From Candidatus Moraniibacteriota bacterium (lineage in GTDB: Bacteria > Patescibacteriota > Minisyncoccia > Moranbacterales > UBA1568), in contig JBPOHW010000002.1 of the NCBI GenBank assembly GCA_052035095.1, positions 11,405-75,404 on the forward strand: a stretch of 64,000 nt of DNA. Reading direction: 5' to 3'. The position numbers and the translations under genes were made by a program. Shown here piece by piece: positions 17,989 through 37,436 of the stretch (position 1 is the stretch's first letter; each line of letters begins with the position of its first letter). Below the pieces are notes generated by a model. It was given only the letters and a program-made list of their open reading frames with translations. It was not told where the DNA came from and did not search any database.

Positions 17989-18654
17989 TCAAACCAACTG
18001 TTTCAACTTTCCCACAAAATCATCGGGACTGAAAATTTGCAGAATATCGAAACCTCGTCTTTGATAAGAGTCAACTTCATACGCGCAATCGTCTATAAGC
18101 GCCACTTCTTCACATCTCAAAGCATTCTCTTTCAAATACTTGTCAAAAAACGGGATTCGATCGGGATTTCGTTCGTCCACATCCTGCTTGAGTACTTTCA
18201 ACTCGAAAGAATTCAACACATCGTCAAAATATTTCTCAAGCCCCAAAGCCGGCACCGTAAACCGCGTGAACGTGTCCATATTATCCGTTGCGATGACGCA
18301 TTTCGTTCCACTGTCTCTCAGCTTTTTGACAAGCGGAAGAATGTCCTCGGAAACCAAACGCATTGACTCGCAACTCTCTTTGAGATCCTGAAAGATGGTG
18401 TCTCGAGAATATCCGAAACGATCGGCGAGCATCGTAGAGATTTCTTCCGCGTTCATTTTTCCTCGCATCCACTCCATCACCACCGGCATATTCTCGCCAA
18501 GCAGATATCGAAAAAGGGGAGCATACCACTCATGCCGCGGATGCTCGGGATTTTCCCACTGATCCCAAAACAAGGACGTCGACAGCGTATTGTGCCAATC
18601 GAAGAAGACAGTTTTGTATTTCTTACACGTCTTCACAAGGAGTTCTTTGTCCAC
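17989..18654 (-). CDS. HAD-superfamily hydrolase-like protein
   Basis: 221 aa; motif I-like VFFDWHNTL near N-terminus, C-terminal IDD (motif IV-like); its 5' end and upstream region are duplicated at 27.3-27.5 kb. Confidence 0.5.
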   Translation of the reverse strand: MDKELLVKTCKKYKTVFFDWHNTLSTSLFWDQWENPEHPRHEWYAPLFRYLLGENMPVVMEWMRGKMNAEEISTMLADRFGYSRDTIFQDLKESCESMRLVSEDILPLVKKLRDSGTKCVIATDNMDTFTRFTVPALGLEKYFDDVLNSFELKVLKQDVDERNPDRIPFFDKYLKENALRCEEVALIDDCAYEVDSYQRRGFDILQIFSPDDFVGKLKQLV

Positions 18655-18745
18655 ATAATTACGCCCGTATTATTTCCGGCTGAAAAAACTGCTCCTGAAG
18701 ATTCGTCCCTTTCCCATAGAAAGAGAGTAGCACAAAATTCACCAT

Positions 18746-18779
18746 GAAAAAAAGCCCTGACAATTTGACTGTCAGGGCT
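18746..18779 (-). terminator. terminator of 18804..19580 gene
   Basis: AGCCCTGACA...TGTCAGGGCT hairpin preceded by A-run on plus (T-run on minus). Confidence 0.5.
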
Positions 18780-19698: not shown

Positions 19699-19808
19699 CA
19701 AAAGGAGTCAGTCGCCCTTTTTAGCTTCTTTACCTTTCCTCCTCCGCACTCTACCCCAAAACCCCAAGAAAAAACACGCCCTCTCGAATGCGCTTTTCGT
19801 TTGGCTCC
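19699..19808. repeat. ~110-bp upstream element, copy 1 (near-identical to 21473..21588)
   Basis: Long identical runs e.g. AAACCCCAAGAAAAAACAC, CTCTCGAATG.GCTTTTC.TTTGGCTCC shared by both copies. Confidence 0.7.
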
Positions 19809-19971
19809 AAGCACTATAAATGAAGTTCGAACCTGATTTGGAAAACATCCTTATCAAATTTGAGTCGTATAAATACAAAAACCCCGAGACACATCCAGCG
19901 AATCGGGGTTGGTATAATTTACGGAACATCCTCACTCCGTAGTTAGTTAGAGAGTATTCCAGAGCTAGATA

Positions 19972-20640: not shown

Positions 20641-20965
20641 GAGTATTTCTCCAGATCTCCAGATGTGTATGAGGTTATTTGCCGCGATCGGCGTTTTGAC
20701 AATATGTTCTTCCATTACATACAGCCAAAACGCCGACGGATGACAAATAATCTCCATTCCGTTTTTCTTTAAGGTACTCTTATCGTGCTTTTTCAGCATG
20801 ACGCTCTATATCTATCATACATTTTTACGCCTGTCAATACTTGTACCCTTGCACTGCTAACAAATTTCAGTTTCAAATTCCATTTTAGGCAACAAAAAAC
20901 AGGACTTGCTACAGCCTCGTTTTCTTAGCTCCGCGGACTGGACACTCTAATTCGAACCTCCTTGC

Positions 20966-21472: not shown

Positions 21473-21588
21473 AAAAGGGATCAGCTACTCCTTTTGGTTT
21501 CTTTCCCCTTTCTCTTCCACGTGCTACTCCAAACCCCAAGAAAAAACACACTCTCTCGAATGTGCTTTTCATTTGGCTCCGCCTGGTA
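21473..21588. repeat. ~110-bp upstream element, copy 2 (plus degenerate partial tandem copy at ~21395-21440)
   Basis: See copy 1. Confidence 0.7.
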
Positions 21589-21631
21589 GATAACATTGGA
21601 ACTTATCTCACACACCCAACATCCTCTCCCC

Positions 21632-21859
21632 TCAACCGAAAGTAAAAGCGTAGAACTCAACATTTTCATCCAAGAACTCAAGCCTCAGCGTGTGCTGTCC
21701 CGGCGTAGGGAGATTAACCAGCTTATAAAGTCGGTCGACATCAACTATCACCTTGCCTGACTGAACGCTTTCCCCAAAGTACTGCCCCTCTCCATCAACC
21801 GAAACTCTGACTTGCGCCACTCCTGTCTTGGGACGAATGACAAGAAGGACTTCCCTCAT
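21632..21859 (-). CDS. small hypothetical protein translationally coupled to CcdA-TlpA gene
   Basis: ATGA start/stop overlap at 21856-21859; 75 aa beta-rich. Confidence 0.4.
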   Translation of the reverse strand: MREVLLVIRPKTGVAQVRVSVDGEGQYFGESVQSGKVIVDVDRLYKLVNLPTPGQHTLRLEFLDENVEFYAFTFG

Positions 21860-23121
21860 CTCAAATCAGCCACCCCCGCTTCTTCGAGCAGTATCTGAAT
21901 TACTTCCTCACTCTCGTCGTAAGCGCCTTCGCCAAAATGGCTATGACGGATGTTGCCATCTTTGTCGATAAAGTACTTGGCCGGCCAGTACCGATTGTTG
22001 TAATTGCGCCACGTAGCAAAGCTGTTGTCCTGCACGATGGGATACATGAGTCCGAAATCCTGCGCCGCTTTGCGCACATTCTTCTCTGCCTTTTCGAATT
22101 CAAACTCCGGTGAGTGCACCCCGATGATTACCAGTCCTTTGTCGGCATACTTCTCATGCCACTTTTTGAGGTATGGGAGCGTCCGCTGACAGTTGATACA
22201 GGAGTAGGTCCAAAAGTCGATCAAGACCACCTTGCCCCGCAGTTCCTGGAGCGAAAGCGGGCTACTGTTCATCCATACGCCACCGGGAATGATCTCGGGG
22301 GCTAGTATTCCTTTGGACAAAAGAATGTCTGGCGATGACTTCTCAGGATTCTTGGCATCCGTCCGGTTATTCAATTGATCCAATTCCTCTCGGAGGAAAG
22401 CCTTGTCTTCAAGCTTCGTCAGACCTGCGCCATACTGCGGGAATGTGGTAATGATATAGGTCTGAAACTTGCGATCGAAATTGGTGTAGATAGCAATGGC
22501 TGTCAATATCATCAGCACTCCGAACGCCTTTTGGATATTGCCCGTATTGCGCATAAGCCACGGCACCCGCATAAGAAGCTCCCGTCCTCCCCTCATGATA
22601 AGGAGCATAGGGAGCGCCGTCCCAAGCGCGTAAGCCAAGGTGATGAAAAAGGCCGCCCAGGTCACACTCCCCGAGAGCGCCAGCGAAATAACCGACGCGA
22701 GGATCGGCCCCACACACGGCGTCCACAAAAGTCCGAGAGAAAATCCGACAAGAAGCCCTGAGCCAAAACCCTTACGTTTCGTTTGTTTCGGGACAAGACC
22801 TGTGAGACGCGAAAAGAGATTCTCCAATAAGACCTGGAAACGAGGGATGAGGAACGATACACCAAGGAAAGCAATCACTCCTACCGAAACAAGACGCAGT
22901 GTGTCAGCGGGAATGCCCGTGAAGCTCACCAGCGTTGAAAGGAAAAGCGTGAACAATGTGAAGCTCGCCACGAAGCCAGTGATCACCCCAAGCGGCCGCG
23001 CTTTCCCGATATGCTCTCCACCGAGGCTCGAGGAGAGAATTAGCGGCAGGATAGGCAAGATGCAAGGTGAGAGCACGGTGACTAATCCGGCAATGAAAGC
23101 AAAGACGATGAGAAGAATCAT
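21856..23121 (-). CDS. CcdA/DsbD-type transmembrane electron carrier fused to TlpA/ResA-like thioredoxin domain
   Basis: TM-embedded LSPCILP and WTPCVGPIL (CcdA motifs); C-terminal WTYSCINCQ (CxxC) thioredoxin fold. Confidence 0.85.
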   Translation of the reverse strand: MILLIVFAFIAGLVTVLSPCILPILPLILSSSLGGEHIGKARPLGVITGFVASFTLFTLFLSTLVSFTGIPADTLRLVSVGVIAFLGVSFLIPRFQVLLENLFSRLTGLVPKQTKRKGFGSGLLVGFSLGLLWTPCVGPILASVISLALSGSVTWAAFFITLAYALGTALPMLLIMRGGRELLMRVPWLMRNTGNIQKAFGVLMILTAIAIYTNFDRKFQTYIITTFPQYGAGLTKLEDKAFLREELDQLNNRTDAKNPEKSSPDILLSKGILAPEIIPGGVWMNSSPLSLQELRGKVVLIDFWTYSCINCQRTLPYLKKWHEKYADKGLVIIGVHSPEFEFEKAEKNVRKAAQDFGLMYPIVQDNSFATWRNYNNRYWPAKYFIDKDGNIRHSHFGEGAYDESEEVIQILLEEAGVADLR

Positions 23122-23124
23122 AGC

Positions 23125-23718
23125 TTACTTGATGTTCTTCAAGAGTTCGGCCACTTTGCCGCCATTCCATTTGGTCACAGCCTGACCATCTTGGTCGATC
23201 TGCACAAAGGTATGCTGATAGGTCACGCCATACTGCCGGGCAAGATCCTTTTCCTCCTGATCGGTATCCGGATCATTGTAATTCACTCGAACCACTGTGA
23301 CATCACTTGGAATCTCACTCATCTTCTCCCTAAATTCGGCATCGGCCAGCTTGCAATTCGGGCACCAGCTCGCGTAGAAGAAAAGAACGCGCCGGGAATC
23401 TTTGGCTTGTTCCAAACTCTCCTTGGAATACGTCAGGTACCGTTCACTCTTCGCCATCATCATCGCCTCAGGATTCATCATGCTTTCCTCTTTTGTTTCC
23501 ATGCTCGGTTTTTCCATCATGGCATCACTCTCTTCCTCCATCATGCCTGCATCCTCCATCTTGGTATCACTCTCCATCATTTTTTCCTCGGTTGGTTTCA
23601 TCATCGATTCTCCTTCCATCATCTGCTTATTGTCCCCTGATGACTGAGTATTCATCCACCACCACGCACCCCCTGCCACGACCACGAGACCGATTATGAG
23701 CACCAGTACTTTTGCCAT
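23125..23718 (-). CDS. membrane-anchored thioredoxin-like protein with Met/Glu-rich linker
   Basis: N-terminal TM, ~90-aa low-complexity MMEx repeats, C-terminal FFYASWCPNCK thioredoxin domain; start trimmed to MAKVLVL (ATG 23718). Confidence 0.7.
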   Translation of the reverse strand: MAKVLVLIIGLVVVAGGAWWWMNTQSSGDNKQMMEGESMMKPTEEKMMESDTKMEDAGMMEEESDAMMEKPSMETKEESMMNPEAMMMAKSERYLTYSKESLEQAKDSRRVLFFYASWCPNCKLADAEFREKMSEIPSDVTVVRVNYNDPDTDQEEKDLARQYGVTYQHTFVQIDQDGQAVTKWNGGKVAELLKNIK

Positions 23719-23761
23719 ATGTTTTCTCCTTTCGGAGCAGTTAAAAAAATTACCGTTTAAA

Positions 23762-24133
23762 CTAATACAGTTTGCGGGCATAAACGCGACCGAGTATCTT
23801 GGCAAATACCATTCCGGCGAGCGCGGCCGGAAGCCACGGATCGATCGCATGAGCCATAGCCTGAAGTACCGTTCCCACAAGCAAGATCATACCTCCTGCC
23901 GTATAGGCAAGACGAGCGGCGATGAATCGATGCAGCTGCTCGCGTTCATCCGAGACCGATTCCCTCCAAATAAACATGGCGAAGATCGCAAAAAAAGCCG
24001 CAACCAGTCCGAGGAGTGTCATATGTACCGCATCCGTCATCCACCAATCAAGCGGATTGATAAAACACACCAGCAATACGATGAGCACCAAGGCGACCGC
24101 AGTCTCTCCAAAAAGTTGGTTCAAAAATTTCAT
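23762..24133 (-). CDS. hypothetical membrane protein
   Basis: 123 aa, 3 TM; stop overlaps XRE gene start. Confidence 0.45.
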
Positions 24134-24336
24134 AGCTTTATTTTAAAAAGTTTTTCAAGTGGTTCGTCAAAAAATCGCGCGATTTTGAGGGCGAGTAACA
24201 CCGAAGGAACGTAGTTTCCTTTCTCGAGCGCGATGATCGTCTGGCGCGTGACCCCTACCGCCGTCGCGAGCGCCTCCTGCGTCACCTCTCTCTGCCGACG
24301 CATCGCTTCAATTTTGTTCTCTATGGTTTCTGCCAT
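24130..24336 (-). CDS. XRE-family helix-turn-helix transcriptional regulator
   Basis: 68 aa; [26 protein letters not shown] Cro/C1-type HTH. Confidence 0.8.
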
Positions 24337-25379: not shown

Positions 25380-26236
25380 ACGCCTTTGTACGTTCGAGAG
25401 CCATCCCGTTCGACCCTGATTACTATATGTCCATCACTCCTTGTCGTAAGAACCTTTCTTGGGTTTTGAAAATCACCATTCAGGCATACTCCATTTCCTA
25501 GGACGCGTTCCCCATACGCTTGGCTCATACCCTCCTGCGTGCCATGAACCACCTTTTTATCCGATATTATCACGCACTCAGGAAAACAATATTCAAACAT
25601 TTCTTCTGCGTATCCGTTCTCTCTTCCATGATGCGCTGCAACCAACACATCGGTTTTCGATAACCAATCCCTGAAGTCTTCTTTTTTCAACATGAGTTCC
25701 CATCCTGCCTCTTCAAGATCGCCGGAGATGCAAACTGTTGTTCCAAGATATTCGACGAATACTACCTGGCTCAGGTTATTGGTGTTTATCTCCTGATCCT
25801 CGGGAAAATGATGCTGCTCCAAGTAGAATGTCTTCACGACATACGGCGGCTTATGATGCGCAGCGCTACCGGTATACGCGCGCTTATAGTGACATACGGA
25901 ATCAAGAGCTTCGGTTTTCTCTGGCTTGATGTCGTATAACTCTTCCACGGAAATATTTTTCGGAAATCGGATCGTATCGATATGAACCTTTTTAGAAAGG
26001 TACGCCATCCCCGAAAAATGGTCATGATCGTAATTGGTAAGCGTCAGATTGCTGAGCACATGCCTCCGCCCATCATGATGCATGTATTCGCTTGAAATCA
26101 AAGTATCAATCGGATCAAAATCTGGCGTATTCCCACAGTCAACAAGCATCCCATATTCCGGATTATTGTGCGGATAAAAAAAGATGCTTTGCCCCATTTC
26201 AACATTGAATACAACTACGTCCATCATAATATTCAA
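25376..26236 (-). CDS. metallo-beta-lactamase-fold metallo-hydrolase
   Basis: NYDHDHFSG (HxHxDH) plus downstream His residues (AAHHG); start overlaps LexA-like stop. Confidence 0.75.
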   Translation of the reverse strand: MNIMMDVVVFNVEMGQSIFFYPHNNPEYGMLVDCGNTPDFDPIDTLISSEYMHHDGRRHVLSNLTLTNYDHDHFSGMAYLSKKVHIDTIRFPKNISVEELYDIKPEKTEALDSVCHYKRAYTGSAAHHKPPYVVKTFYLEQHHFPEDQEINTNNLSQVVFVEYLGTTVCISGDLEEAGWELMLKKEDFRDWLSKTDVLVAAHHGRENGYAEEMFEYCFPECVIISDKKVVHGTQEGMSQAYGERVLGNGVCLNGDFQNPRKVLTTRSDGHIVIRVERDGSRTYKGV

Positions 26237-26877
26237 ATCTTCACATTCTTGATAACCTCCACGACTTTCCCACTCAGGACATACTGACCTATTTCACTTT
26301 CACCAATGACAATCGGCGGATAGTCTTTGGTCGATTCGGACACAAGCATCACCTGTTGGTGTTCCTCGTCGAGATAAAACTTCTTTATATTCGCCAAACC
26401 ATCAATCACGGAAAGTACGTATTCCCCTTTCTCCGGAACCGTGACATCGCCGTCGACTATCACGTAGTCTCCCGGCTCGATACTTCTTTTCGCTTTCCCT
26501 ACCTTTGCCTTATTCATCGAGAACCCGTCCGCCTGTACGGCGAACAATCCTTTCTTGTACGGGACAAGAGAACTCGAAACTCGAATATAGCTCTGAACGT
26601 AGTTCTCGGCAAATCGGGTCGCTGGACCGCAATCGGCAGACCCATATACTGGAATTGCCACCAATCCGGACATCCTGGAAACGCCCTCTTTAATACGTTC
26701 TACCACACCACCCTCCCGATCCATCTTGATCAAGCCCTTCTTCTGCAACTGAGAGAGGTGATGCTTCACCGTTTGGGCATTTTTAATCCCGGCAAGCTCA
26801 GCAATGTCTCGGTAAGTCATTTTCCCGAGATTATATTTCCTTGAAAGTTCGAGAAGTTTTTCCTGATTCTTATGCAT
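26233..26877 (-). CDS. lexA: LexA-family repressor (winged HTH + S24 peptidase)
   Basis: N-terminal wHTH; VYGSADCGP cleavage-site-like region; Ser in QADGFSMNKA and Lys in ANIKKFY spaced as in the LexA Ser/Lys dyad. Confidence 0.65.
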   Translation of the reverse strand: MHKNQEKLLELSRKYNLGKMTYRDIAELAGIKNAQTVKHHLSQLQKKGLIKMDREGGVVERIKEGVSRMSGLVAIPVYGSADCGPATRFAENYVQSYIRVSSSLVPYKKGLFAVQADGFSMNKAKVGKAKRSIEPGDYVIVDGDVTVPEKGEYVLSVIDGLANIKKFYLDEEHQQVMLVSESTKDYPPIVIGESEIGQYVLSGKVVEVIKNVKI

Positions 26878-27299
26878 AAGTTTTTGGCTAGCTCTTTTCC
26901 CGTAGCATATCAGACCAGTATAATCATGTCAATACTAATTGTTTACTTATTTACAAGTTTTACAGTTGGAGAAAAAGAAAACTGGAACTTCTTGCTCCAG
27001 ACTTCAATAATGCTGGCTTACGGAAACCACACAATCCCCTTCCAGCTACTTATAATACCTCTTCGCACCTGATGGGAAAGTTGTGGGGCAGGTGCCGGTT
27101 TGGGAGAAGACGACATCGAGCTCGGTGGCAGAAATGACTTTGAAATAAGCCCAGCCACTCCGCTCTCCCGGAGAGAAGCCGTCAAAGCGAAAGAACACGC
27201 CTGTCAGGCATATTCTTTGATGGCTCCAGCTATTGGATGAGATTCGAACCTGTTTTTGAAAAAAGAAAAAAGCACCGTACCCGCCAGTCGTGTACTTGT

Positions 27300-27408
27300 T
27301 CATCAAAAGACGGCCACCATAAAAGTGTATCGTGCCAATCGAAAAAGATGGTTTTGTATTTCTTGCGCGTTTTCACAATAAATTCTTTGTCCACATAATT
27401 ACGCTCGT
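27300..27408 (-). pseudogene. decayed duplicate of the 5' end of the HAD-like gene (frameshifted fragment)
   Basis: ~85% identical to 18587..18737; encodes VDKEFIVKTRKKYKTIFFDWHDTLL in a frame disrupted relative to its ATG. Confidence 0.5.
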
Positions 27409-27483
27409 ATTATTTCCGAATGAAAAAACTGCTCCCGAAAATTCGCTCATTTCCCATAGGGAAAGAGTAGCACAAGACTCGCA

Positions 27484-27518
27484 AGAAAAACAAAGCCGCT
27501 GGGCGATACCATGCGGCT
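27484..27518 (-). terminator. rho-independent terminator at left edge of AT-rich element; loop identical to 16136..16172
   Basis: GCCGC-ATGGTATCGCCCA-GCGGC + TTTGTTTTTCTT on minus strand. Confidence 0.5.
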
Positions 27519-27572
27519 TCTTAGTTTTATTAAAACATTAACGGGATTACTATCTCACTTTTTTCCTTATCG

Positions 27573-27761
27573 TTAGTCGTCTTCCTTGATTTCGACCTCG
27601 ATGCCAAATCGATCTGAACATTGTAACATCAGAGCGCCAAACGCCTCATTGACACTTTGACCATCACCCAAATCTCGCTGGTCTTCTCCTGCGATGTAGG
27701 AGCGATAGCGTTTGCCTCGCCTCTCTATAATGATCGTTGTCGCTATTGCACAGTCTGTCAT
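27573..27761 (-). CDS. small HicB/DUF1902-like protein (possible antitoxin-like)
   Basis: 62 aa; YRSYIAGE...GDGQSVNEAFGAL resembles HicB-N/UPF0150 fold pattern. Confidence 0.35.
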   Translation of the reverse strand: MTDCAIATTIIIERRGKRYRSYIAGEDQRDLGDGQSVNEAFGALMLQCSDRFGIEVEIKEDD

Positions 27762-27889
27762 TGCTATTACTCCTTATGTAAAGCCAAGAGAAAGATAATC
27801 GTCAGCAATCTCACGATACCAATTATAATACATGCATAAAATCATTTGTCAATTCAAGTTGCTGTTTAGAAATTAGAGAAGAGGTTATA

Positions 27890-28420
27890 TTAAAGTTTTT
27901 TACTATAGTATTCGTAACATTTCTTATACCACTCGGAAATACTTTTATCGCTATTTATTTCATTTTCAAAAAATTTTACTAAAAGTTGTCTCGGCTTATC
28001 ACTAAAAGGGATATGGTAAATTTTTGGCCATATTTCCCCATACCACGCTCCAAGGTTATTGGATTTGATGTCGCAAGCACCGCCTATGCCATCTTTCTGT
28101 ATAAAAAATATTTGATCTACGCGGTTCATTATCGAAGCGCCAAGACACTGAATGCATGGCTCAAGAGTTGTATAAAGTTTAATTATTTTGTTTTCCTTAT
28201 GTGCTTGCTTAATATTTATATCATTTCTAATTAGCAAAGAATTCTCTGCGTGAGTTACCCACGATTCTTTATTTCTTTCATTACCAGAGGTATCAAAAAT
28301 TTTATCATCAATAACTAAAACCGCGCCAACGGGAAAATCACCTGCTTCATATGACTTATTTGCCATATCAATAGCCAGTGTGAAACATTTCTTATCAAGT
28401 TCATTTAGGACATCTCCCAT
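27890..28420 (-). CDS. CDA-fold zinc deaminase (TadA-like nucleoside/nucleotide deaminase) with novel C-terminal tail
   Basis: FPVGAVLV...THAENSLL...LEPCIQCLGA (H-A-E and PCxxC zinc motifs); ~60-aa C-terminal extension not typical of TadA. Confidence 0.8.
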   Translation of the reverse strand: MGDVLNELDKKCFTLAIDMANKSYEAGDFPVGAVLVIDDKIFDTSGNERNKESWVTHAENSLLIRNDINIKQAHKENKIIKLYTTLEPCIQCLGASIMNRVDQIFFIQKDGIGGACDIKSNNLGAWYGEIWPKIYHIPFSDKPRQLLVKFFENEINSDKSISEWYKKCYEYYSKKL

Positions 28421-28546
28421 ATAAAAGAGAAAAGTACTCCGCGAGCAAGTATTATTTGCACGCTTTTTCTGCTCCCACTACTAGATAAACTTAGAACTTT
28501 AGATTGGGAGACCCTACGGAGCACTTTACAACACTTACAAGCGTCT

Positions 28547-31500
28547 TTACTGATCCAATCCTTTAAACATAAGGTCTAACAAGACCGAAAAATGTAACAA
28601 CCGTTCAGGGCGCATATTTGATTGCAAGTTAATCAAAATACTTTCCTTAACCTCTTGCAGATCGTGATTTTCCCCAATTACTCTAAATACTTCTGCCATT
28701 GCTTTCCCTTTACTTTTTTCTGGGGCTGCAGGATCTTTTGCGAGCAACATAAAGAGGCTGGCAAGAACAAGTCCTAATGACTGGACCGATGTTTCTCTTC
28801 TCCCTACTGCCCTAATCAAATCAAAAACTTTTTTTACATCATATTCCTCCTTTTTGAGATGATAGAATATTACGCCGGCACTTACGGGTACGTACTCATA
28901 GTGAAGATTGATAATTTTTCTAATTACTTCGTAAGCTTCTTCAGAAGTTAGTACACCTCTCTTTTCAGCTTCAACAACAAGAGAGTATGTCGAAAATGAG
29001 TTAAGCTGATTCTCGCGACGAATAATCGCCCTTAACATTCGATCATCACAGTAAAAAGACAGCCTCTTCTCTTGCGCCAGAATGAGACTATCTCGCGTGC
29101 TATCCTCTAGGGCGTTTACTAGATTCTTCTCATCGAAGTTATGCTCTGTTTCTAGACCAGTAACTTCAAACGTCTCATTTGATATAATGAATCCCTTCAC
29201 TCTTTCCAAAAACTCAATGGTTTTCTGTACTTGCTCTGGTGGTATCTCAGACATTTGATGTCTACCCTCTATCTTCCCGATATAGGTAATGCCTTTTCTT
29301 GCAGATACTTTTCTTTCTTCAATAGTATGAGTTAGTTCATCTAGAACCGACTGGTGTATATATATTTTTTCAAACATTTCTGGCAGAATCTCAAGTTTGC
29401 CTAGATGCCCTAACAAAAACAAAGTATAAATATCCGGCACCATACCCCTTCGAGTATCTTCTATCGCCAAAAACTCCTCCTTGGCTTCTTCTGGTGTGCC
29501 AAAGGCTATTTTCACTCCCAGTTCAGGGGTCTCAATAAAAGCTGCCCAGATATCAAATGGCTTTCTCCCGGCGATATGTGGTATAGCCGCAAGTGGCGCT
29601 GAAGATTCCTTATACAGCTTCACGGCTTTGCTCGTAATTTCCGCAGTAAAATCAACTTTTTTAAAAATTTCACTTAGATCCCCGTCCTTTATTTCTATGC
29701 TTTCCAGTGCCCTCTCTTCAGGAAACCTCTTTGTAAATTCTCCTATGGATTTTTGGAACTTCTTAATGTATTTCTCATCTATTTCATCCCCGCTCTCCTG
29801 TTCACGCTTTAAGAAAGTAAAAATATAGGCCAAATGAGTCTTTGGGTTGTTGTCGTCCGCCTCTAGTGCCTGGTAATTTATCTCCAGTGCTACATCGCGC
29901 TGTCCAATTAGCTCATAGCAGGTCGCCAATATAAGCAGGTTTTCAGTGTCTTTTGTGATGCCACGAATCTGATCAAAAGTTCGTGCCGCTTCATTCTCCT
30001 TCCCTAATCTAAACAAGCACGATCCGTAGTACACTATGTATCTGAGTGTCGAAGGATCTTGTTGATAAAGTTGCTTGAATAAAATAGACGCCCTCTCTAA
30101 ATTGTTCAAATAAAGATTAGAGTAAGCTTCTAGCTGCCTAACTACTGCGTTTGATTTTATAACCTCCACTTGCCGATCTACCCATCGTAAAAGTTCCCCA
30201 TATTGTCCAGAATTATACAGACACTCTGCAAATCTCTGATTCGCAAAATGTGCCCGCCCTGTATTTACATATCTGGTAAATATTGCCTGCGCCTCAATGT
30301 ACTTTCCCGATTGAAACAAGTAATTTGCTAGTTCCATTTCAGAAAGTTCCTTGTCGAATGGAGTTGTTGCTACTTCCCCGGATTTTCTAAGTAGTTCTTC
30401 AACTGCTAAAGACCCTTTTTTCTGTAATTGCAATGCCCTCACTCTTAGGGCTGTTGAATCATCAGGGAGCTCACTTTCCAACCTTTCAAGAAGCTTGTCC
30501 ACCTTTTCTACTTCAAGTTTTCTCGAATACAATTCAAGGGCTAGTTGAGCGACATCAGGATCAATATTAGTGGTCTGAGCAAGAAGTAGGGATAGTGATT
30601 TTTCGGCTCTTTCCAAGTTTCCACTCTTAAGCGCACAGTATGCTATATGTCTCTCTGGATCAGTACTCCCGCCACCAAGAATCTGATATCTATCAAAACT
30701 TCTAATTGCTTCAATGTACTTACCTAAACGCAACAAAGAAACTCCCTTATTTAGGAATGGCATCGCTGATTTCGGATCAATTGCAGAGGCTTTCTCAGCA
30801 GCATCTATAGATTTTTCATACTCCCCAAGAATTGAGTAACAAGCAGATAAGTTCGTGTAAGCATTTTCCCGTGCTTCGTTGGCATCTTTACCACCTAAAA
30901 TACCAAGGGCTTTTTCTAAGGATTGTGTTGCCTTCTGAAAACTTTTGGAAAGTTCTTTCGGAAGCCTATCAGGCGGGTAGTCCTTAACCTTATCCTGATT
31001 ACCCACTAAGATACTTTGTGCAAGTCGAAAGTGAGCCTCGATATTTTCCGAATTAATGGCTAGAACCTTTTCAAATGTGACAACTGCTTGGTCATACTGC
31101 TTAAGATCTATATTTTCCAATCCTTCGTAGGTATACCTCAACTCCGTATCCTTTTGGCTTTTAAGAAAATTACGCAGATCCTGGTATCTCCTCAGCACAT
31201 AAAGAATATTTGCCTTTATCGAAATCAGGTGCTCATCACCAGAATTATCTTTAAGCAAGTTATCAACAATCTGCAAAGCCCCTTCTGAATCCCCCTTATA
31301 ATGTTTTGCGAGAGCAAGGTTTCCCCTTGCCTTGGAATCCTTAGGATTGGCCGCATAGCCCTTCTCAAAGAATTCGCCTGCCTGAGTAAGATTTCCAAGA
31401 TTCATCTCACAGACCCCTAGGTTGTTATAAACCCGAAATAGCAAATGCGAATCGACTTTTTCAGTTTCTAAGAGGAGGTCCTGAAGGATCAACTCATATT

Positions 31501-32098
31501 CCTTCTTGGCTGCCTCATTTTTTCCTGCATCTACTGTCTTCTTGGCATTTTCAATTCTTCGCTGGTAATCTTTCTCGATCTTCGTTTTATACTCCCTCTT
31601 TACTTCGTCTATCTCACTAAGGGTATTTTTAATACCCTTAATTTCCGTTTCGATGTCCGAAAAAATAAGAGACGGGAATTGACTTCTTAGGTGAGTGTGT
31701 TTAGCCAACAACTCAGTAAGCTTCACACCAGACCACGATATTCCTTCAAACCCCCGAACTTTTGACTCTTTTCTTAGAAAAGTAAGTGTGGGCTCCGGTA
31801 AATCACGGGGCGTAATAAACACCCATTTTTTAATGACATAATTTCCACTTTTTACCAATTTTTCAGCTTTTTCTAAATCCTCTCGTATCTTTCTCTTATA
31901 TCTTGTGTCATTAGCTTTTTCTGGTTTCTCAGGACAATACATCTGAAAAAGAATGCTTTGAGACGAGGAATAACCGTCATTGCCTGCATCACCCCCACTA
32001 TCGTCTACGGCCTCAAAATCCTCGTATTCCGCAGCAAGAAGAGCCTTGCAGAGGCTTGTATGAAGATCTGGTGAGGTATTTTGGCTTATTAAATCCAT
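28547..32098 (-). CDS. large TPR-repeat protein with uncharacterised N-terminal (Mrr-like motif?) and C-terminal domains
   Basis: 1183 aa from ATG 32098 (AGAGGA RBS); many TPR-like units in the central ~530 aa; N-terminal DDSGGDAGNDGY...ILFQMYCPEKPEK; no Walker A. Confidence 0.75.
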   Translation of the reverse strand: MDLISQNTSPDLHTSLCKALLAAEYEDFEAVDDSGGDAGNDGYSSSQSILFQMYCPEKPEKANDTRYKRKIREDLEKAEKLVKSGNYVIKKWVFITPRDLPEPTLTFLRKESKVRGFEGISWSGVKLTELLAKHTHLRSQFPSLIFSDIETEIKGIKNTLSEIDEVKREYKTKIEKDYQRRIENAKKTVDAGKNEAAKKEYELILQDLLLETEKVDSHLLFRVYNNLGVCEMNLGNLTQAGEFFEKGYAANPKDSKARGNLALAKHYKGDSEGALQIVDNLLKDNSGDEHLISIKANILYVLRRYQDLRNFLKSQKDTELRYTYEGLENIDLKQYDQAVVTFEKVLAINSENIEAHFRLAQSILVGNQDKVKDYPPDRLPKELSKSFQKATQSLEKALGILGGKDANEARENAYTNLSACYSILGEYEKSIDAAEKASAIDPKSAMPFLNKGVSLLRLGKYIEAIRSFDRYQILGGGSTDPERHIAYCALKSGNLERAEKSLSLLLAQTTNIDPDVAQLALELYSRKLEVEKVDKLLERLESELPDDSTALRVRALQLQKKGSLAVEELLRKSGEVATTPFDKELSEMELANYLFQSGKYIEAQAIFTRYVNTGRAHFANQRFAECLYNSGQYGELLRWVDRQVEVIKSNAVVRQLEAYSNLYLNNLERASILFKQLYQQDPSTLRYIVYYGSCLFRLGKENEAARTFDQIRGITKDTENLLILATCYELIGQRDVALEINYQALEADDNNPKTHLAYIFTFLKREQESGDEIDEKYIKKFQKSIGEFTKRFPEERALESIEIKDGDLSEIFKKVDFTAEITSKAVKLYKESSAPLAAIPHIAGRKPFDIWAAFIETPELGVKIAFGTPEEAKEEFLAIEDTRRGMVPDIYTLFLLGHLGKLEILPEMFEKIYIHQSVLDELTHTIEERKVSARKGITYIGKIEGRHQMSEIPPEQVQKTIEFLERVKGFIISNETFEVTGLETEHNFDEKNLVNALEDSTRDSLILAQEKRLSFYCDDRMLRAIIRRENQLNSFSTYSLVVEAEKRGVLTSEEAYEVIRKIINLHYEYVPVSAGVIFYHLKKEEYDVKKVFDLIRAVGRRETSVQSLGLVLASLFMLLAKDPAAPEKSKGKAMAEVFRVIGENHDLQEVKESILINLQSNMRPERLLHFSVLLDLMFKGLDQ

Positions 32099-32532
32099 AG
32101 AAATATCCTCTAGTATAGGAGCAAAAGAAGAATAAAGGGAGGGGCATAGAGCAGAGATACACAACTTTTTAGTTTAATTCATTACTAAACTAACCCATTA
32201 ATTAGCCGAATGAATCCTCAAAAATGTCGAAAATACCGTTGATCCAAAAAGCCCAATGAACTTATAATTTCTCCTGAAGTACTTACTCGAAGAACTATTG
32301 ACTTCGCGTCATTTTGAAGCCATAATACAGGCACAATTTGTCCTAACCCCCGAGAGCAATCTCGGGGTATGGCGTAATAAACCCTAAGGAATAAAGATGG
32401 TCATCTGACCAGCACTTATTCCTTAGGTTGGATTCTCGAAAGGGTTTCCAGGCAGTCTCGAAAGGGATTGTCGCTGTGTTGGGTGACCTTTTTTGTATCC
32501 AACTTTTAATCACTTACATCCCACATAAAGTT

Positions 32533-33486
32533 ATGAAAAAGTGTCCCCTCTGTTCTGAAGACATTCAGGATGATGCAAGCAAGTGTCGTTTTTGTGGTGA
32601 ATGGATTAATAAGGGATCATCGAATCGGCAGAACGAACAGCCACAGGTAAAGGATAATCGGAAAGTACTAAAAATTATTGGTTGGGTTTTCGCTATCATT
32701 TTAGGGATCACATTCTGGTACATTTCGATCCCCCTCTTGGCACCATTCCTCATCTACAAAAAAACAAGCCTGCCGAAAAAGACAAGGCTCGTCGTTTCTG
32801 GAGTTGTATTTCTGGTATTATCAGCGATTGGCGCAAGCTTCCTTTATTCGGCTAATAAAACCCCGATTCTTAGTATCAGCGAGCCAGAGAATGGGGTTAT
32901 TATTCAAGCTAAAAAGGTTTCTATTAAAGGAAAAGTGGAGCCGAAGGGAGCGGAGGTAAAAGTTGGAGATCAGACTATACCAACAAGTAATGGTGAATTT
33001 TCTTACGAAGCTCGGTTGAATAATGAAAAAAATACCTATGTATTTACCGCTAGAAATGGCTCTCATAGCACTCAATCGAGCATTGCAATAAACAGGCTTT
33101 TCACTGAAGAGGAGAAGACGGAGATCGAGAAACAAAAAATAGAGATGGAAGCGAAACAAAAAGCCGCAGAAGATGAGGAAAAGAAACAGGAGGAGGCTCA
33201 AAGACAACAGCAAATAGCCGAGCAAAAAGCTTGGGAAAGTACACGCGCAGGACAGCTCTGCAAGAAGCATCCTAAATGGAGCAGGGAAGATTGCCTTAAG
33301 GTTGCTGACAAAAAGATCTGGATAGGAATGCATTATGAGATGTTGGTTGAACTATTCGGAAAACCAAATCACGCCAACCCTTCAAACTATGGTGGTGGCA
33401 CCCAATGGCAATGGTGCTGGAATAATTACAATCCGTCTTGCTTCTACGATAATGACGATGATGGGATCGTAGACAGTTACAACTGA
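32533..33486 (+). CDS. zinc-ribbon membrane protein with coiled-coil and Trp-rich C-terminal domain
   Basis: MKKCPLCSEDIQDDASKCRFCGEW zinc ribbon, two TM helices, E/K-rich coiled coil; start trimmed to ATG 32533. Confidence 0.5.
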   Translation: MKKCPLCSEDIQDDASKCRFCGEWINKGSSNRQNEQPQVKDNRKVLKIIGWVFAIILGITFWYISIPLLAPFLIYKKTSLPKKTRLVVSGVVFLVLSAIGASFLYSANKTPILSISEPENGVIIQAKKVSIKGKVEPKGAEVKVGDQTIPTSNGEFSYEARLNNEKNTYVFTARNGSHSTQSSIAINRLFTEEEKTEIEKQKIEMEAKQKAAEDEEKKQEEAQRQQQIAEQKAWESTRAGQLCKKHPKWSREDCLKVADKKIWIGMHYEMLVELFGKPNHANPSNYGGGTQWQWCWNNYNPSCFYDNDDDGIVDSYN

Positions 33487-33588
33487 GACTCGATAGTAAA
33501 ATCACCGGCCAGAAGCCGGTGATTTTTGTTTTGCATTCTTGCTACATCATAAAAACAGTGCTTATGTAAAGAATAGTAATGAACTGGT

Positions 33589-34299
33589 ATGGAATCACTC
33601 AACAAAATCGCTCAACAAGAGCAGGGCTTACGCAAGGCTATTTGGTGGCTCATCAAAGAACTTCGACAAGAAAGCGAGGCCACTGACTCAGAAAAAGTGG
33701 TCTTTGTTATTAGGGAAAATAGCCACTTTTCACCAGCAGAACAAAGACGATCAATAACTTTTCTGGAAAAAGAAGGGTTATTAGAAATACTGGAAGCTAG
33801 GCTTGCTGAAAATCTGGACCGACACAAAATACTAGAAATACAGGGATTTTTTGACAAATACACTCCCCAACCTATTCGATTCACTTTGAAACTCAATATA
33901 GGGGCTTTTAAGAGTCTCTACGGGGCTTATAAAGCATTCTTTAAGGAAGAAGAGGGAGCTGTGGCACTCTCTTTTGATGAAATTTCTGGAATCCTTCACT
34001 TTAATGACAAGTCAATCCGTTTTCATCCCCAGAGTAATTCTTTCTCTATTCTGAAAGCCCTATTAAGTAGCAAGAGGTCTTCCCTGTATGAAATAGGTGA
34101 TCCGATGAGCTTCGATGAAATCAATAACGAGATTTGTTTCGATCATTCGATAGAACCAATTGCGAAAAAGGCTTTTTACAGTGCCCAAAAACACATAAAT
34201 AAAAAGGCGGCTCAGTACCTCAGTGCGCCTGAATTTACTATATTGAAAGATTCAAATCTCAGTATAAATAGAAAGTATGTTTTGTCAGAAAACTGGTAG
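33589..34299 (+). CDS. hypothetical protein
   Basis: 236-aa ORF in AT-rich element. Confidence 0.45.
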   Translation: MESLNKIAQQEQGLRKAIWWLIKELRQESEATDSEKVVFVIRENSHFSPAEQRRSITFLEKEGLLEILEARLAENLDRHKILEIQGFFDKYTPQPIRFTLKLNIGAFKSLYGAYKAFFKEEEGAVALSFDEISGILHFNDKSIRFHPQSNSFSILKALLSSKRSSLYEIGDPMSFDEINNEICFDHSIEPIAKKAFYSAQKHINKKAAQYLSAPEFTILKDSNLSINRKYVLSENW

Positions 34300-34564
34300 A
34301 AAATTGGTAGAATTTTGGTAGAAAGCGCAAGACAATCTCCCTTTAACCTGATAGCAAAACTATCAGGTTTTATGTTTGAAAGGATGAACAACGGGCATAA
34401 ATCAGAGAGCGTATGCCTAAAAAAGGAGAGGGAAAGCCTAGTGAACGCTCGAGTTAGTCAAGCGAACCTTATGGATAGCCAAGAGAACCTCATCGGATTT
34501 TTTGATCTTTTACTCAAAATTGATATGCGTATCAATCCAAGTCTTTATTCTTCAAAAGATCACT

Positions 34565-35695
34565 ATGATTGACACGGTAATACTCTCTATACCTAGGCAG
34601 AATTTCCAACCATTTTCCAATACTCTTTCCTCAAAGTGGGATCTTTACAGTAAGAGCAATGGTTTCGAGAAATATGTAAAAAATAAAACCGACCAACAAA
34701 AGCACGACGGGATCTATAGGCCAAGAATTTCGGTTATCAAACGTGGAGGTCTCAGCTTCCTTAGGGTTGAGTTTTCCATACCAAAACTCATCTTCGGAAA
34801 CAATGTAGACGAAGTCGCTGAAAGTGACTTTGGAAACATTATCAAAATACTCCAAACCCACCTCAAAGACTTTGGGATATGTATTCACACCAAAGCCTTA
34901 GAAGAATCCCCTGTTTCTTCTTTTCACCCGTCAAAAAACATCCTTTTGAGTGAAGGGTACACGGCAAGCGGGGTGATCCGAGAACTCAAAAAAGTAAATT
35001 TGAGCACCAGGATGGACCTTAACAAAGACAGTTATCGAAACGATGGGCAGTCACTCCAATGTTACACAGGATCACATTCGCTAGTCATCTATGACAAAAT
35101 AAAAGATTTGAAGAAGCGGAAAAAGCGGGCTTTAGATAAAGATCAAACTCCTATACAGTCACCGATTTCTCATACTCTGATCTCGTCAAATAGACATATC
35201 GAAATCCTAAGGATAGAAGTCAGACTATCAAAAAAGACAAAAATGAACGCTGTGCTCGTAAAGAATAGATTCAGTTGCAACCCTGTATTCAAGGACATTT
35301 TCCGAGAGTCTGTATGTCAAAGAATAATCTTGCAGTATTGGAACGATCTTGTAACAGACAAAAACATCTTTCTTTATTCTCTCGAGTCAAACCCAAAGCG
35401 TATTCTAGAAAGAATCTTAAGAAGGAAGGGGCTTATCAAGACGAAAGAGGCCATCTACCTAACAGGTCTTCACCAGCTCTGTAAAGATGCAGGCGGTATC
35501 AGAGAACTACGGGCGTTACTAAGCCAATGCACAACCGATAGAACGTGGTATCGAATTTCTAGTGATATTAAAAAGCTTGATGCCTTGCAAGATCCCCTGC
35601 TTTGCCACCAATGGCTGGCACAAGCGCGCTCGCAACTTCAATCCTACAAACCATTGAAGATCAAAGACTTGATATGTCCAGTATCGAAACTATAA
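34565..35695 (+). CDS. possible replication initiation factor (Rep_trans-like)
   Basis: MIDTVILSIP..., LRVEFSIPKL, SLVIYDK blocks weakly resemble rolling-circle Rep_trans proteins of integrative elements; start trimmed to ATG 34565. Confidence 0.3.
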   Translation: MIDTVILSIPRQNFQPFSNTLSSKWDLYSKSNGFEKYVKNKTDQQKHDGIYRPRISVIKRGGLSFLRVEFSIPKLIFGNNVDEVAESDFGNIIKILQTHLKDFGICIHTKALEESPVSSFHPSKNILLSEGYTASGVIRELKKVNLSTRMDLNKDSYRNDGQSLQCYTGSHSLVIYDKIKDLKKRKKRALDKDQTPIQSPISHTLISSNRHIEILRIEVRLSKKTKMNAVLVKNRFSCNPVFKDIFRESVCQRIILQYWNDLVTDKNIFLYSLESNPKRILERILRRKGLIKTKEAIYLTGLHQLCKDAGGIRELRALLSQCTTDRTWYRISSDIKKLDALQDPLLCHQWLAQARSQLQSYKPLKIKDLICPVSKL

Positions 35696-35714
35696 TTTTA
35701 CTAACTCAACCCAT

Positions 35715-35897
35715 ATGGAAGAACAGGATAAAGAATTCTTCAAAGCAAGCGAGATAGCTGGGAGATTATCCGTTAGTGTGATGACAATTTATCGTTACAT
35801 TAAGTCGGGTAAATTAAGGGCGTACAAAATTGGTAAAGAGTTTCGTATTGAACAGATTGAGTTTGAAAGATTTCTTGAAAGCGTCAAAACCAAATAG
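35715..35897 (+). CDS. excisionase-type helix-turn-helix DNA-binding protein (HTH_17-like)
   Basis: 60 aa; FFKASEIAGRLSVSVMTIYRYIKSGKLRAYKIG; immediately upstream of recombinase. Confidence 0.7.
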   Translation: MEEQDKEFFKASEIAGRLSVSVMTIYRYIKSGKLRAYKIGKEFRIEQIEFERFLESVKTK

Positions 35898-35900
35898 TTT

Positions 35901-37403
35901 ATGAAAGCCGTTATCCTAGCAAGAGTCTCTACGGAAGAACAAAAAGATGCTGGCAATTCACTGCCTGCTCAAATTCATCGTTTGCAAGAATACTGTAAGC
36001 GGAAAGGGTTTGTTGCAGTAGAGACTTTCAGTTTTGATGAAAGCGCCTACAAAACTAAGCGGGACGAATTCGATAAAACACTGGAATACCTCGAAAGTAC
36101 AAAAGAAAAAATTGCCGTCTGTTTTGATAAAGTGGATAGACTTTCCCGTAATGTCTTTGATAAAAGGGTCTCCCTATTGTATGAGAAAGCCGTAGCCGAT
36201 GTTATAGAACTTCATTTCGCTTCAGATGGGCAAGTGATCAGTTCTTCAATGTCAGCCGTCGAAAAATTCCAATTCGGAATGAGTCTTGGTCTGGCGAAGT
36301 ACTATTCCGATGCGATTAGCGACAATGTGCGGCGTGCTTTTGAACAGAAACTCAGGAATGGTGAATGGATCGGGCAAGCAAGGATTGGGTACATAAACAC
36401 CCAAGATGGGGGTAAAAATGACCTCGCGCTCGACGAAGAAAAGGCTCCACTAGTCCGAAAAATGTTCGAGTTATACGCTACTGGAAACTATTCGATCAAA
36501 ACGCTCCAAAAGGAGATGGGAAAGCTCGGCCTCAAGAGCAGGAACACCAAGATCATAAGTCCCAGTATGATCCATAAAACCCTCAAGGATAAGTTTTACA
36601 TAGGCATAATGACCTCTAGGGGCAAGGAGTACCCCCATAAATACCCCATAATCGTACCGAAGATCACTTTTGATAGGGTTCAGAAAGTACTATCCAGCTA
36701 CGACAAAAAGACCATAAAATATGCCTCAAAGCCCTTTGCCCTGCGAGGGCTCATTCGTTGCAATAGGTGTAGTGGAACAATCACTGCTGAAATTGTTAAG
36801 GGGAAATACACCTACTACAGTTGTTCAAATTTTAAGGGTCTTTGCAAACGAATTTATGTCAGAGAAGAAGACTTGCTCGCACCCATTCGTGAATTGCTCC
36901 AGGCTATCCATCTTCCTCAAGATCGGGTTGATGAAGTTGTTCAAGCCCTTAAGGCTTCTAATGAAAATAAGAACCATTTCCACAAGAAGGCTTTACGACA
37001 GCTTCAACTGGAATATGAGAAGATCCAAACAAATCTTGATCGTCTCCTTGACCTCAGGATCGAAGAAAGTATTACTCAGGAGATCTATGACAAGAAATTC
37101 AAATCCTACAAAGAGCGACAATATGAGATTGCTCTAAAGCTAGAGGAGTACACTTACGCTGATGAAAGTTACCATATTGGCGTAGAAATGGTACTTTCTC
37201 TGGCTAGCCGAGCCCTTGAAATATTCAATGGTTCTGAACCAGACGAAAAACGGCAGCTTCTGAATCTTGTACTTCAGAACTGCCGCCTTTCAGGGAAAAA
37301 CCTCACATTTGAGCTCCGTTCTCCCTTTGATGCCATCCTAGAGACGGCACATCATCCTACAGTGCTCCGGCGGCAGGATTCGAACCTGCGACCAAGTGAT
37401 TAA
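35901..37403 (+). CDS. large serine recombinase
   Basis: MKAVILARVSTEEQ catalytic Ser motif, recombinase domain, CNRCSG...YYSCSNFKGLC zinc ribbon, C-terminal coiled coil; last ~13 codons lie inside tRNA-Asn. Confidence 0.9.
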   Translation: MKAVILARVSTEEQKDAGNSLPAQIHRLQEYCKRKGFVAVETFSFDESAYKTKRDEFDKTLEYLESTKEKIAVCFDKVDRLSRNVFDKRVSLLYEKAVADVIELHFASDGQVISSSMSAVEKFQFGMSLGLAKYYSDAISDNVRRAFEQKLRNGEWIGQARIGYINTQDGGKNDLALDEEKAPLVRKMFELYATGNYSIKTLQKEMGKLGLKSRNTKIISPSMIHKTLKDKFYIGIMTSRGKEYPHKYPIIVPKITFDRVQKVLSSYDKKTIKYASKPFALRGLIRCNRCSGTITAEIVKGKYTYYSCSNFKGLCKRIYVREEDLLAPIRELLQAIHLPQDRVDEVVQALKASNENKNHFHKKALRQLQLEYEKIQTNLDRLLDLRIEESITQEIYDKKFKSYKERQYEIALKLEEYTYADESYHIGVEMVLSLASRALEIFNGSEPDEKRQLLNLVLQNCRLSGKNLTFELRSPFDAILETAHHPTVLRRQDSNLRPSD

Positions 37404-37436
37404 CAGTCACCTGCGCTACCGCTGCGCCACGCCGGA
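37365..37436 (-). tRNA. tRNA-Asn (anticodon GTT)
   Basis: Cloverleaf read by eye: acceptor TCCGGCG/CGCCGGA, D-arm GCGC-AGCGGTA-GCGC, anticodon loop CTGTTAA, T-arm GCAGG-TTCGAAT-CCTGC, G discriminator, no encoded CCA. Confidence 0.85.

Follow-up and report, generated by a model that had tools for sequence, protein, structure and literature searches.

The 64,000-nt stretch analysed here (contig JBPOHW010000002.1 of a Candidatus Moraniibacteriota bacterium), hereafter called the window, carries a large serine recombinase (LSR) gene that reads into a tRNA-Asn(GTT) gene. The host is a Moranbacteria-like bacterium of the candidate phyla radiation (CPR). All coordinates are window positions unless a compared contig or genome, denoted by an L-number, is named. 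To the left of the tRNA lies the AT-rich block noticed in a preliminary description of the sequence, with a GC content of 0.37–0.41 over 27–36 kb as compared with about 0.50–0.53 outside; GC is already lowered, to 0.42–0.45, at 24–27 kb. That description proposed a ~10-kb element at the tRNA 3′ end, with attL and attR arising by duplication of the tRNA target. The element itself is borne out, at 10,141 bp core to core (27223–37368), and the left site flagged earlier is its attL; the duplication is not. The block has the features of a tRNA-linked island, being positioned at a tRNA 3′ end, missing in the relatives L165 and L167, and deviant in GC content. Its features are collected in Table 1.

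An integrase gene that reads into tRNA-Asn

Matches to all three Pfam domains expected of an LSR were found (PF00239, 1.1e-20; PF07508, 4.8e-14; PF13408, 5.5e-8). The catalytic motif ARVSTEEQ, with S10 and R8, is intact and its residues are invariant or nearly so in 54 homologues, in which the zinc-ribbon residues C287, C290 and C308 are invariant. A stretch of ~100 residues (about 330–440) that follows the zinc ribbon is a candidate for the coiled-coil insertion of the zinc-ribbon domain, the part of an LSR by which directionality is controlled. ARAGORN, Rfam and Pfam agree with the original observation that the last 13 codons of the gene overlap the tRNA. From the Leu codon CTC (37365–37367) on, the LSR codons are the complement of the acceptor stem, T-arm and anticodon stem; the last 13 codons sit in the 3′ half of the tRNA, and the anticodon loop, read as complement, supplies the TAA stop. 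The protein ends ...TVLRRQDSNLRPSD (in longer form ...HHPTVLRRQDSNLRPSD).

The only sequence that the two ends of the element have in common is GCTCC; at the right end it is complementary to the last bases of the acceptor stem together with the discriminator base and the C after it. Further in, the 9-mer GATTCGAAC of the left end recurs in the tRNA, which serves as the B′ arm, at 37377–37385; with TC as the centre these are half-site positions 11–19. It belongs to a 12-mer, GATTCGAACCTG (27241–27252, with the tRNA copy at 37377–37388), whose sequence and orientation had been recognized correctly as a copy of the tRNA T-arm but whose left copy had been placed at 27236–27247. Counted from the G of GCTCC, the 12-mer begins 13 nt on in the tRNA and 18 nt on at the left end, a shift of +5 bp, and the bases on both sides of the left copy differ from the tRNA. 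Flanking tRNA-derived direct repeats are therefore not present; there is a 5-nt core and a 12-mer displaced by 5 bp.

Serine integrases leave their target unduplicated. The sites described here conform to this behaviour, with no long identity between attP and attB and with a zinc-ribbon-domain (ZD) motif 5 bp nearer the centre in attB. For LI integrase, the 9-bp ZD motif occupies positions 16–24 in attP and 11–19 in attB (Rutherford et al., 2013; PMC3783163). The 5-bp shift is the offset expected of the ZD motif between attP and attB. The left 12-mer is thus element DNA, part of the P′ arm, which mimics the T-arm of the tRNA at a distance from the crossover that is greater by 5 bp; it is no duplicate of the target.

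Occurrence of the octamer TTCGAACC is not significant on its own (8 matches in the window vs 4.75 expected); its matches include 19826 and 20951, where shorter copies had been reported near ~19823 and ~20950. The composite pattern GCTCC-N(8-20)-TTCGAAC, however, has four matches vs 0.26 expected, a number reached in none of 100 shuffles, and all four (19804, 20928, 27223 and 37364) are on the + strand.

The P arm of attP lies within the last codons of the LSR gene (about 37339–37363). Read outward as complement, it agrees with P′ at positions 5, 6, 8 and 10–15, the last of these being a common GGATGA, so that the reconstructed attP is a quasi-palindrome centred on TC. The same centre is reached independently from the published positions of the ZD motif, and we infer that strand exchange takes place at this dinucleotide. 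The predicted in silico junctions are TTCTTTGATGGCTCCGGCGGCAGGATTCGAACC for attB and CATCCTACAGTGCTCCAGCTATTGGATGAGATTCGAACC (also written CATCATCCTACAGTGCTCCAGCTATTGGATGAGATTCGAACC) for attP. On the other side of the attL core, the left arm consists of an A-run, a hairpin, a T-run and about 10 nt before GCTCC, the layout also seen in the tRNA-Asn flank of L165 and L167 and in the left arms of the older sites described below.

The position of attP within the integrase gene explains the overlap between the LSR open reading frame (ORF) and the tRNA, and means that integration would swap one C-terminus for another. When 37368 is joined to 27228 in silico, the sequence reads ...ACA GTG CTC CAG CTA TTG GAT GAG ATT CGA ACC TGT TTT TGA and translates to ...TVLQLLDEIRTCF, in which the tail (L)QLLDEIRTCF is encoded by the P′ arm. 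The tRNA-encoded tail ...VLRRQDSNLRPSD of the integrated form is thereby replaced by the native tail ...VLQLLDEIRTCF. Among the P′ arms of the family the Arg codon is either CGA or AGA, and conservation extends beyond the 25-bp half-site, for example in RTFFSENPNAEF and RTxDWxxI. These observations suggest selection acting on a native tail that is translated.

Recurrence in related integrases and in other genomic contexts

At least 1951 homologous proteins were found at E <= 1e-10. Those with a named source are mostly from CPR bacteria (Moranbacteria, Paceibacteria, Zambryskibacteria and others), with one from Omnitrophica. Among the best 120 homologues, in which tails were classed, 38 carry tRNA-encoded tails (xDSNxRP...), 53 stop one or two codons past the conserved L489 and six read into other tRNA types. 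A further class of 13 has tails of the form L-x-x-[LV]-[DNE]-x-[ILVF]-R-T..., and the reconstructed native tail LQLLDEIRTCF fits this R-T pattern. We also compared metagenome loci (80 relatives and the window, 81 in all). The tRNA-type N10 spacing was present at the L489 codon in 55 of the 81, mostly with tRNA-Asn on the opposite strand and in a few cases with tRNA-Gln, -His or -Trp, while an R-T tail together with N15 spacing was present in 6–9 of the 80, all with the +5 spacing. The same construction appears to be shared by over a thousand related integrases of CPR bacteria. On the sequences compared, overlap of the integrase ORF with a tRNA gene recurs across a very large, mainly CPR family and is no oddity of a single locus.

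Movement of such elements is indicated by a sister element, of which L146 and L159 share 7982 bp at 99.1% identity. The identity ends at GCTCC(G) on the right and starts at AATTTGGCTCC on the left. On its right lies tRNA-Asn in L146, and in L159 the P′ arm of another element (with HTH, methylase, ResIII and OLD genes); on the left, too, the two contigs have different neighbours.

Comparison with relatives lacking the insertion, as the preliminary description had suggested, was possible in two genomes whose rpoD is 88–90% identical to that of the window, L167 and L165 (CP064989.1, a complete 1.09-Mb Moraniibacteriota genome). Both have the order rpoD-HypC-tRNA-Asn and then directly a hairpin terminator, without an integrase. 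In L166 just a 3′ remnant of such an integrase is left at the tRNA. Logan contig L082, from another sample, carries identical HypC and tRNA sequences and ends exactly at ...CCGCCGGAGC (...GGAGC). This end is suggestive, since alleles with and without the element would part at that position. In the best GTDB relative, L001 (rpoD 73% identical), the locus is non-syntenic and no tRNA-Asn follows rpoD. Exact-protein look-ups with HypC, the LexA-like protein and the deaminase returned only the same element (L083/L164) or short contigs.

We conclude, with a probability of roughly 0.8, that 27223–37368 is a 10.1-kb integrative element inserted by its LSR at the 3′ end of tRNA-Asn, with the crossover within GCTCC. 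We propose that a circular attP is recombined by the LSR with attB, the 3′ end of tRNA-Asn, within GCTCC and most likely at TC. The tRNA acceptor stem and T-arm would provide the B′ half-site, the left end of the element the P′ half-site, and the last codons of the LSR gene the P half-site. Because the crossover sequence is the complement of the acceptor end, the discriminator and the next C, the tRNA would stay whole and only its 3′ trailer would change. Excision by attL × attR recombination would bring back the native tail, probably with the aid of the HTH_17 protein, and the Rep protein could then replicate the excised circle.

Element genes, older sites and alternative readings

Table 1. 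Features of the element, its attachment sites, the tRNA-Asn target and the older sites to the left (aa, amino acids; counts of loci refer to tblastn of the element proteins against the 80 related loci).
Feature	Position	Strand	Remarks
Older attL-like site	19804-19833	+	Left arm ends TGGCTCC; frameshifted P′ (N17); reads LQAL, then stop
Older attL-like site	20928-20958	+	N18, one extra codon (+3 spacing); in frame LRGLDTLIRTSL
Older degenerate attL-like site	21576-21602	+	N15, TTGGAAC; reads LRLVDNIGTYL, Gly replacing Arg
attL left (B-type) arm	27150-27222		Like a tRNA trailer/terminator; ends ...TTTGATG before the core
attL core GCTCC	27223-27227	+	Only sequence common to attR; putative crossover TC at 27225-27226
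P′ arm	27228-27259	+	GATTCGAAC at 27241-27249, half-site positions 16-24; TGA at 27257-27259
Truncated paralogue of the 5′ end of a HAD-hydrolase gene (17989-18654) and upstream region	27230-27493	-	170-nt repeat
62-aa ORF, cargo	27573-27761	-	No family match; called as a gene in Logan contig L083; absent from the 80 loci
Cytidine/deoxycytidylate (TadA-like) deaminase, 176 aa, cargo	27890-28420	-	PF00383, 2.8e-15; absent from the 80 loci
TPR-PIN protein, 1205 aa, cargo	28547-32164	-	Candidate conflict/defence gene; LmuA-like N-terminus; absent from the 80 loci
LOOT RNA (RF03000)	32340-32472	+	Divergent intergenic region; 58.7 bits vs gathering 46.4, E 6.9e-9, model 1-121
336-aa protein	32476-33486	+	N-terminal zinc ribbon (TcaA-like start); downstream of LOOT RNA; homologues in 2/80 loci
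236-aa ORF, cargo	33589-34299	+	Absent from the 80 loci
85-aa ORF, backbone	34315-34572	+	In 16/80 loci, always just upstream of a Rep homologue
376-aa G2P/Phage_CRI-like probable rolling-circle initiator (Rep), backbone	34565-35695	+	Homologues in 38/80 loci, 819 overall
HTH_17 (excisionase-type) protein, 60 aa, backbone	35715-35897	+	PF12728, 3.4e-12; in 47/80 loci
Large serine recombinase, 500 aa	35901-37403	+	Resolvase, Recombinase and Zn_ribbon_recom domains
attR core GCTCC	37364-37368	+	Complement of tRNA positions 70-74 (GGAG plus C); putative crossover TC at 37366-37367
tRNA-Asn(GTT)	37364-37436	-	ARAGORN and Rfam (start 37364/5); serves as B′ arm

The backbone, comprising the 85-aa gene, Rep, HTH_17 and LSR, is kept together in related loci, and the cargo is variable. 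The HTH_17 gene directly upstream of the LSR gene was rightly described as excisionase-like; its product matches PHROG excisionase families and is a candidate directionality factor or regulator. The 376-aa protein has no family match of its own in Pfam or NCBIfam scans, although Pfam Phage_CRI/G2P (PF05144) is matched by 8 of 50 aligned homologues (best 4.8e-7). Its AlphaFold model (predicted local distance difference test score 90.4) has BFVD matches with E 4e-9 to 9e-6 and template-modelling scores of 0.42–0.54, inovirus G2P among them. On these grounds it is most likely a rolling-circle initiator. The earlier guess of a ‘Rep_trans-like’ gene was broadly right.

Among the cargo, the TPR-PIN protein joins a PIN domain of the TPR-GreAB-C-PIN type (PF20698, 2e-18, residues 911–1048) to TPR repeats (TPR families at 210–790), and is matched by the PADLOC models LmuA (2.8e-9) and PDC-S70. 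No GreA/B C-terminal domain (PF01272) was detected in it or in the other element genes scanned. The NCBIfam TadA match of the deaminase (3.5e-13) is under the family cut-off. LOOT RNA, an orphan metagenomic motif, was found in 3 of 26 elements scanned: that of the window, L160 (1212–1330, +) and L145 (966–1091, −), with scores of 58.7, 69.4 and 80 bits. At the left end, positions 27324–27493 repeat 18584–18753 (170 nt, 83% identical), and the first ~24 codons read VDKEFIVKTRKKYKTIFFDWHDTL and VDKELLVKTCKKYKTVFFDWHNTL, respectively.

The preliminary description suspected older, degraded insertions further left, and three attL-like sites are indeed present there. Each is built like attL, with a terminator-like left arm, (T)GGCTCC and a P′-like arm; the left arm of the site at 21576 is 92% identical to that at 19804. 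CP064989.1 has five attL-like sites downstream of its tRNA-Asn, and no integrase accompanies them. All are N15, their tails include LRALEEVRT and LPLVDELRT, and a hairpin terminator and GCTCC stand ahead of each. Taken together, the older sites of the window and this array make repeated insertion at the tRNA-Asn locus well supported. The possibility that the older left arms are decayed integrase 3′ ends was considered and rejected, as they are terminator-like in the same way as the intact tRNA flank of L165; a search to the left of the older sites, by tblastn and with a hidden Markov model of the family on six-frame fragments, found no recombinase pseudogene remnants.

Units consisting of left arm, GCTCC and P′ arm, without a recombinase, number three in the window and five in L165. 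An integron-like cassette platform would have a resident integrase beside a fixed primary site and an array of promoterless cassettes, each with its own recombination site; here the integrase itself is carried on a mobile unit. We offer tentatively, as a possibility that we hold to be well short of even, that the tRNA-Asn locus is a serine-recombinase cassette platform that takes up X-GCTCC-P′ circles through recognition of the right half-site, the tail swap acting as a switch of activity or directionality after integration. Recognition would be mainly via the right half-sites, that is, the tRNA T-arm and its +5 mimic. An X arm resembling the trailer or terminator would keep the tRNA-proximal attB usable, so that recombinase-less cassettes would pile up; circles with a left arm of this kind may regenerate a usable attB.

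Some further features of these regions were noted. The recombinase-less arrays occupy 11902–17502 in L165 (five sites) and 12547–17286 in L166 (two sites), and their cargo includes Fic, short-chain dehydrogenase fragments, GreA/B-domain, CYTH, radical SAM and thymidylate-kinase genes. Just outside each left arm in L165 and L166 there is a fragment, oppositely oriented, that resembles the T-arm and acceptor 3′ end of a tRNA (GTTCGAATCCCGTCCTGGGCA is one example). In the window, a 17–18-nt stretch of the B-like arm, CTCTCGAATGCGCTTTT (19781–19797 and 21552–21569), occurs inverted at 17243–17260, inside a 110-aa ORF and near the left edge of the low-GC region. Between the site at 21576 and attL lie genes for a LexA-like S24 repressor (26233–26877, −), a small helix-turn-helix protein (24130–24336, −) and DsbD/thioredoxin (21856–23880, −); they may have come in as cargo with an earlier insertion instead of belonging to the host core.

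Several points weigh against the proposed integrative element and its mode of insertion. The crossover is assigned to TC only from symmetry and motif positions, and the B arm is poorly like B′, agreeing at 4/9 motif positions. The Rep model has no match among solved structures (PDB). The end of contig L082 could have another cause, and the exact-protein look-ups yielded no empty-site contig of the same strain. No circular form was found, terminal overlap being present in 0 of 18 whole contigs, and the P-P′ junctions of other loci may stem from tandem arrays and not from circles; L159, which was considered as an excised circle and rejected, is certainly a tandem array. Finally, the B-like left arms on all three older sites are not explained by simple attP × attB recombination. 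The missing circles and empty sites would suit a fixed, immobile remnant in which the overlap of ORF and tRNA is a frozen accident without functional consequence, as would the freedom with which tRNA-encoded tails vary, many stopping 1–2 codons after L489. We regard such a remnant as improbable, because the LSR is full length with its catalytic and zinc-ribbon residues intact, the motif and spacing of attL are exact, a near-identical sister element occupies two contexts, related genomes lack the element, and a contig from another sample breaks at the core. A larger mobile unit starting at 21576, 20928 or 19804, of which 27223 would be an internal junction, fares little better and is also unlikely. 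The low GC from about 24 kb, the four attL-like sites in one orientation and the tandem composites in relatives L146, L159 and L134 are in keeping with it, but all of the backbone genes lie to the right of 27223, where the site has exact N15 spacing and an intact motif, whereas the older P′ arms are degraded (frameshifted at 19804, TTGGAAC with Gly for Arg at 21576, and +3 at 20928).

The two remaining alternatives concern the kind of element. If it were an island of the tyrosine-integrase type, the left 12-mer would be the leftover of a duplicated tRNA 3′ segment, as the preliminary description supposed. Its 12-nt identity, its tRNA orientation and its place at the left edge of the AT-rich block speak for this reading, which is very improbable: Pfam and PHROG scans of the element proteins detected no tyrosine recombinase, the sequence on both sides of the 12-mer is unlike the tRNA, the copy is displaced by +5 bp relative to the common GCTCC, and the same offset and coding register are found in unrelated family members with different P′ sequences. 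An integrated virus, such as an inovirus-like single-stranded DNA phage, has rather more to commend it, given the likeness of Rep to Inoviridae G2P and the matches to PHROG integrase and excisionase-type families, and yet is still improbable. No morphogenesis (Zot-like) or structural protein was detected, and the integrase and HTH_17 proteins are the only ones to match PHROG families of known function, other matches being to families of unknown function. IMG/VR contains hardly any members of the family (4 weak loci), no Rep homologue occurs among 50,697 phage records, and the best phage integrase match is 33% identical; IMG/VR and INPHARED hold no close relatives. The lack of detected virion genes, together with this near-absence from IMG/VR and phage records, speaks against a recognizable prophage. 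With its cargo, it looks like an integrative rolling-circle plasmid-like element carrying candidate defence genes.

Comparison with known systems

The LSR shares with the phage serine integrases of Listeria A118 (LI), Bxb1 and phiC31 the succession of catalytic domain, recombinase domain and zinc ribbon, and the att sites are likewise short, without a long repeat, and have a 9-bp motif at 16–24 in attP and 11–19 in attB. It differs in targeting a tRNA gene at its 3′ end and in having the attP core in the last codons of the LSR gene, so that the C-terminus would be altered by integration. The host is a CPR bacterium, the carrier is no recognizable phage, and identity is 33% or less. Insertion by an LSR at the very 3′ end of a conserved housekeeping gene, which is left active, recalls CcrA/CcrB of the staphylococcal cassette chromosome element SCCmec at rlmH (orfX). 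CcrB (2e-21) and CcrA (3e-16) are the best NCBIfam matches of the LSR, at 76 bits vs a cut-off of 900. Unlike SCCmec, the element has one recombinase rather than a pair, a tRNA target, attP in the recombinase gene and a rolling-circle Rep. Comparable tandem and composite arrays, with recombinase-less cassettes, accumulate beside rlmH in the case of SCC elements.

P4-like tyrosine-integrase islands also insert at tRNA 3′ ends, have the integrase gene adjoining the tRNA and accrete at one tRNA; they duplicate 15–50 nt of the tRNA, whereas the common sequence is here 5 nt long and the 12-mer mimics the tRNA at a shift. SSV1-type integrases and the cluster G mycobacteriophages, with their integration-dependent immunity, have attP inside a gene whose product is changed by integration. 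Both use tyrosine integrases; SSV1 splits int, and the mycobacteriophages truncate the repressor. In the present case only the last 11–12 residues of a serine integrase would be exchanged. phiRv1 combines an LSR with a small excisionase-type Xis, and pSAM2 is an integrative rolling-circle plasmid. The element resembles them in having a small excisionase-like helix-turn-helix gene beside the LSR gene, and in joining site-specific integration to a rolling-circle Rep; it differs in its lack of transfer genes and its G2P-like Rep, and the HTH_17 protein is here a candidate for the directionality role.

The tRNA 3′ target, an attP core in the integrase's own last codons and a huge, mainly CPR lineage would together set these integrases apart from described systems. 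We found no account of integrating elements or serine integrases of CPR/Patescibacteria, or of LSRs with a tRNA attB, in the open-access literature, of which our coverage is incomplete, and any claim of novelty is provisional. CPR bacteria have small genomes, and we know of no genetic tools for them. A very large serine-integrase family with a predictable attB, the 3′ end of tRNA-Asn, and with minimal attP and attB readable from sequence could supply integration tools for these bacteria. The mimicry of the tRNA T-arm at the 5-bp offset that separates attP from attB is of interest in its own right, and the family offers a natural test of how far one half-site carries serine-integrase specificity. 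If the tail swap alters activity, it would constitute a new coupling of integrase function to integration state. In addition, a rolling-circle Rep, candidate defence cargo and the orphan LOOT RNA come together here in a single type of mobile element.

Variants of the arrangement were seen within the family. Group I introns lie directly past the integrase end in L088 (5243–5522, −), L139 (11520–11820, −) and L160 (11549–11809, −). Group I introns apparently interrupt tRNA genes targeted by related integrases. An intron in the place of the rest of the tRNA gene would account for the missing ARAGORN prediction at these three loci and for the tails of their integrases. Tails resembling those at the intron loci, ...DSNLEPIDYTYPKVS, were found also in L103, L093, L118, L130, L116 and L123. 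A third class of tail, ending in LASPV and a stop, is represented by L084 (11483–11520) and proteins P0004, P0013 and P0015; it is encoded by GCTCGCCAGTCCGGTCTAGAACC with N10 spacing. No tRNA was detected at the LASPV-type site of L084, which may be a pseudo-attB or tRNA-like site.

Inverted repeats, which have no comparable counterpart in the window, are present in L134 at 11475–11616/15983–16124 (142 nt, 100% identical) and 16117–16208/17645–17736 (92 nt, 98.9%). They comprise the integrase 3′ end and P′ arm and flank a second integrase gene beside a tRNA-type site. Inversion between such repeats would switch the second integrase gene between a tRNA-joined and a native tail. Further sites are found in L146 (1553–1900, −) and L109 (about 1255, −).

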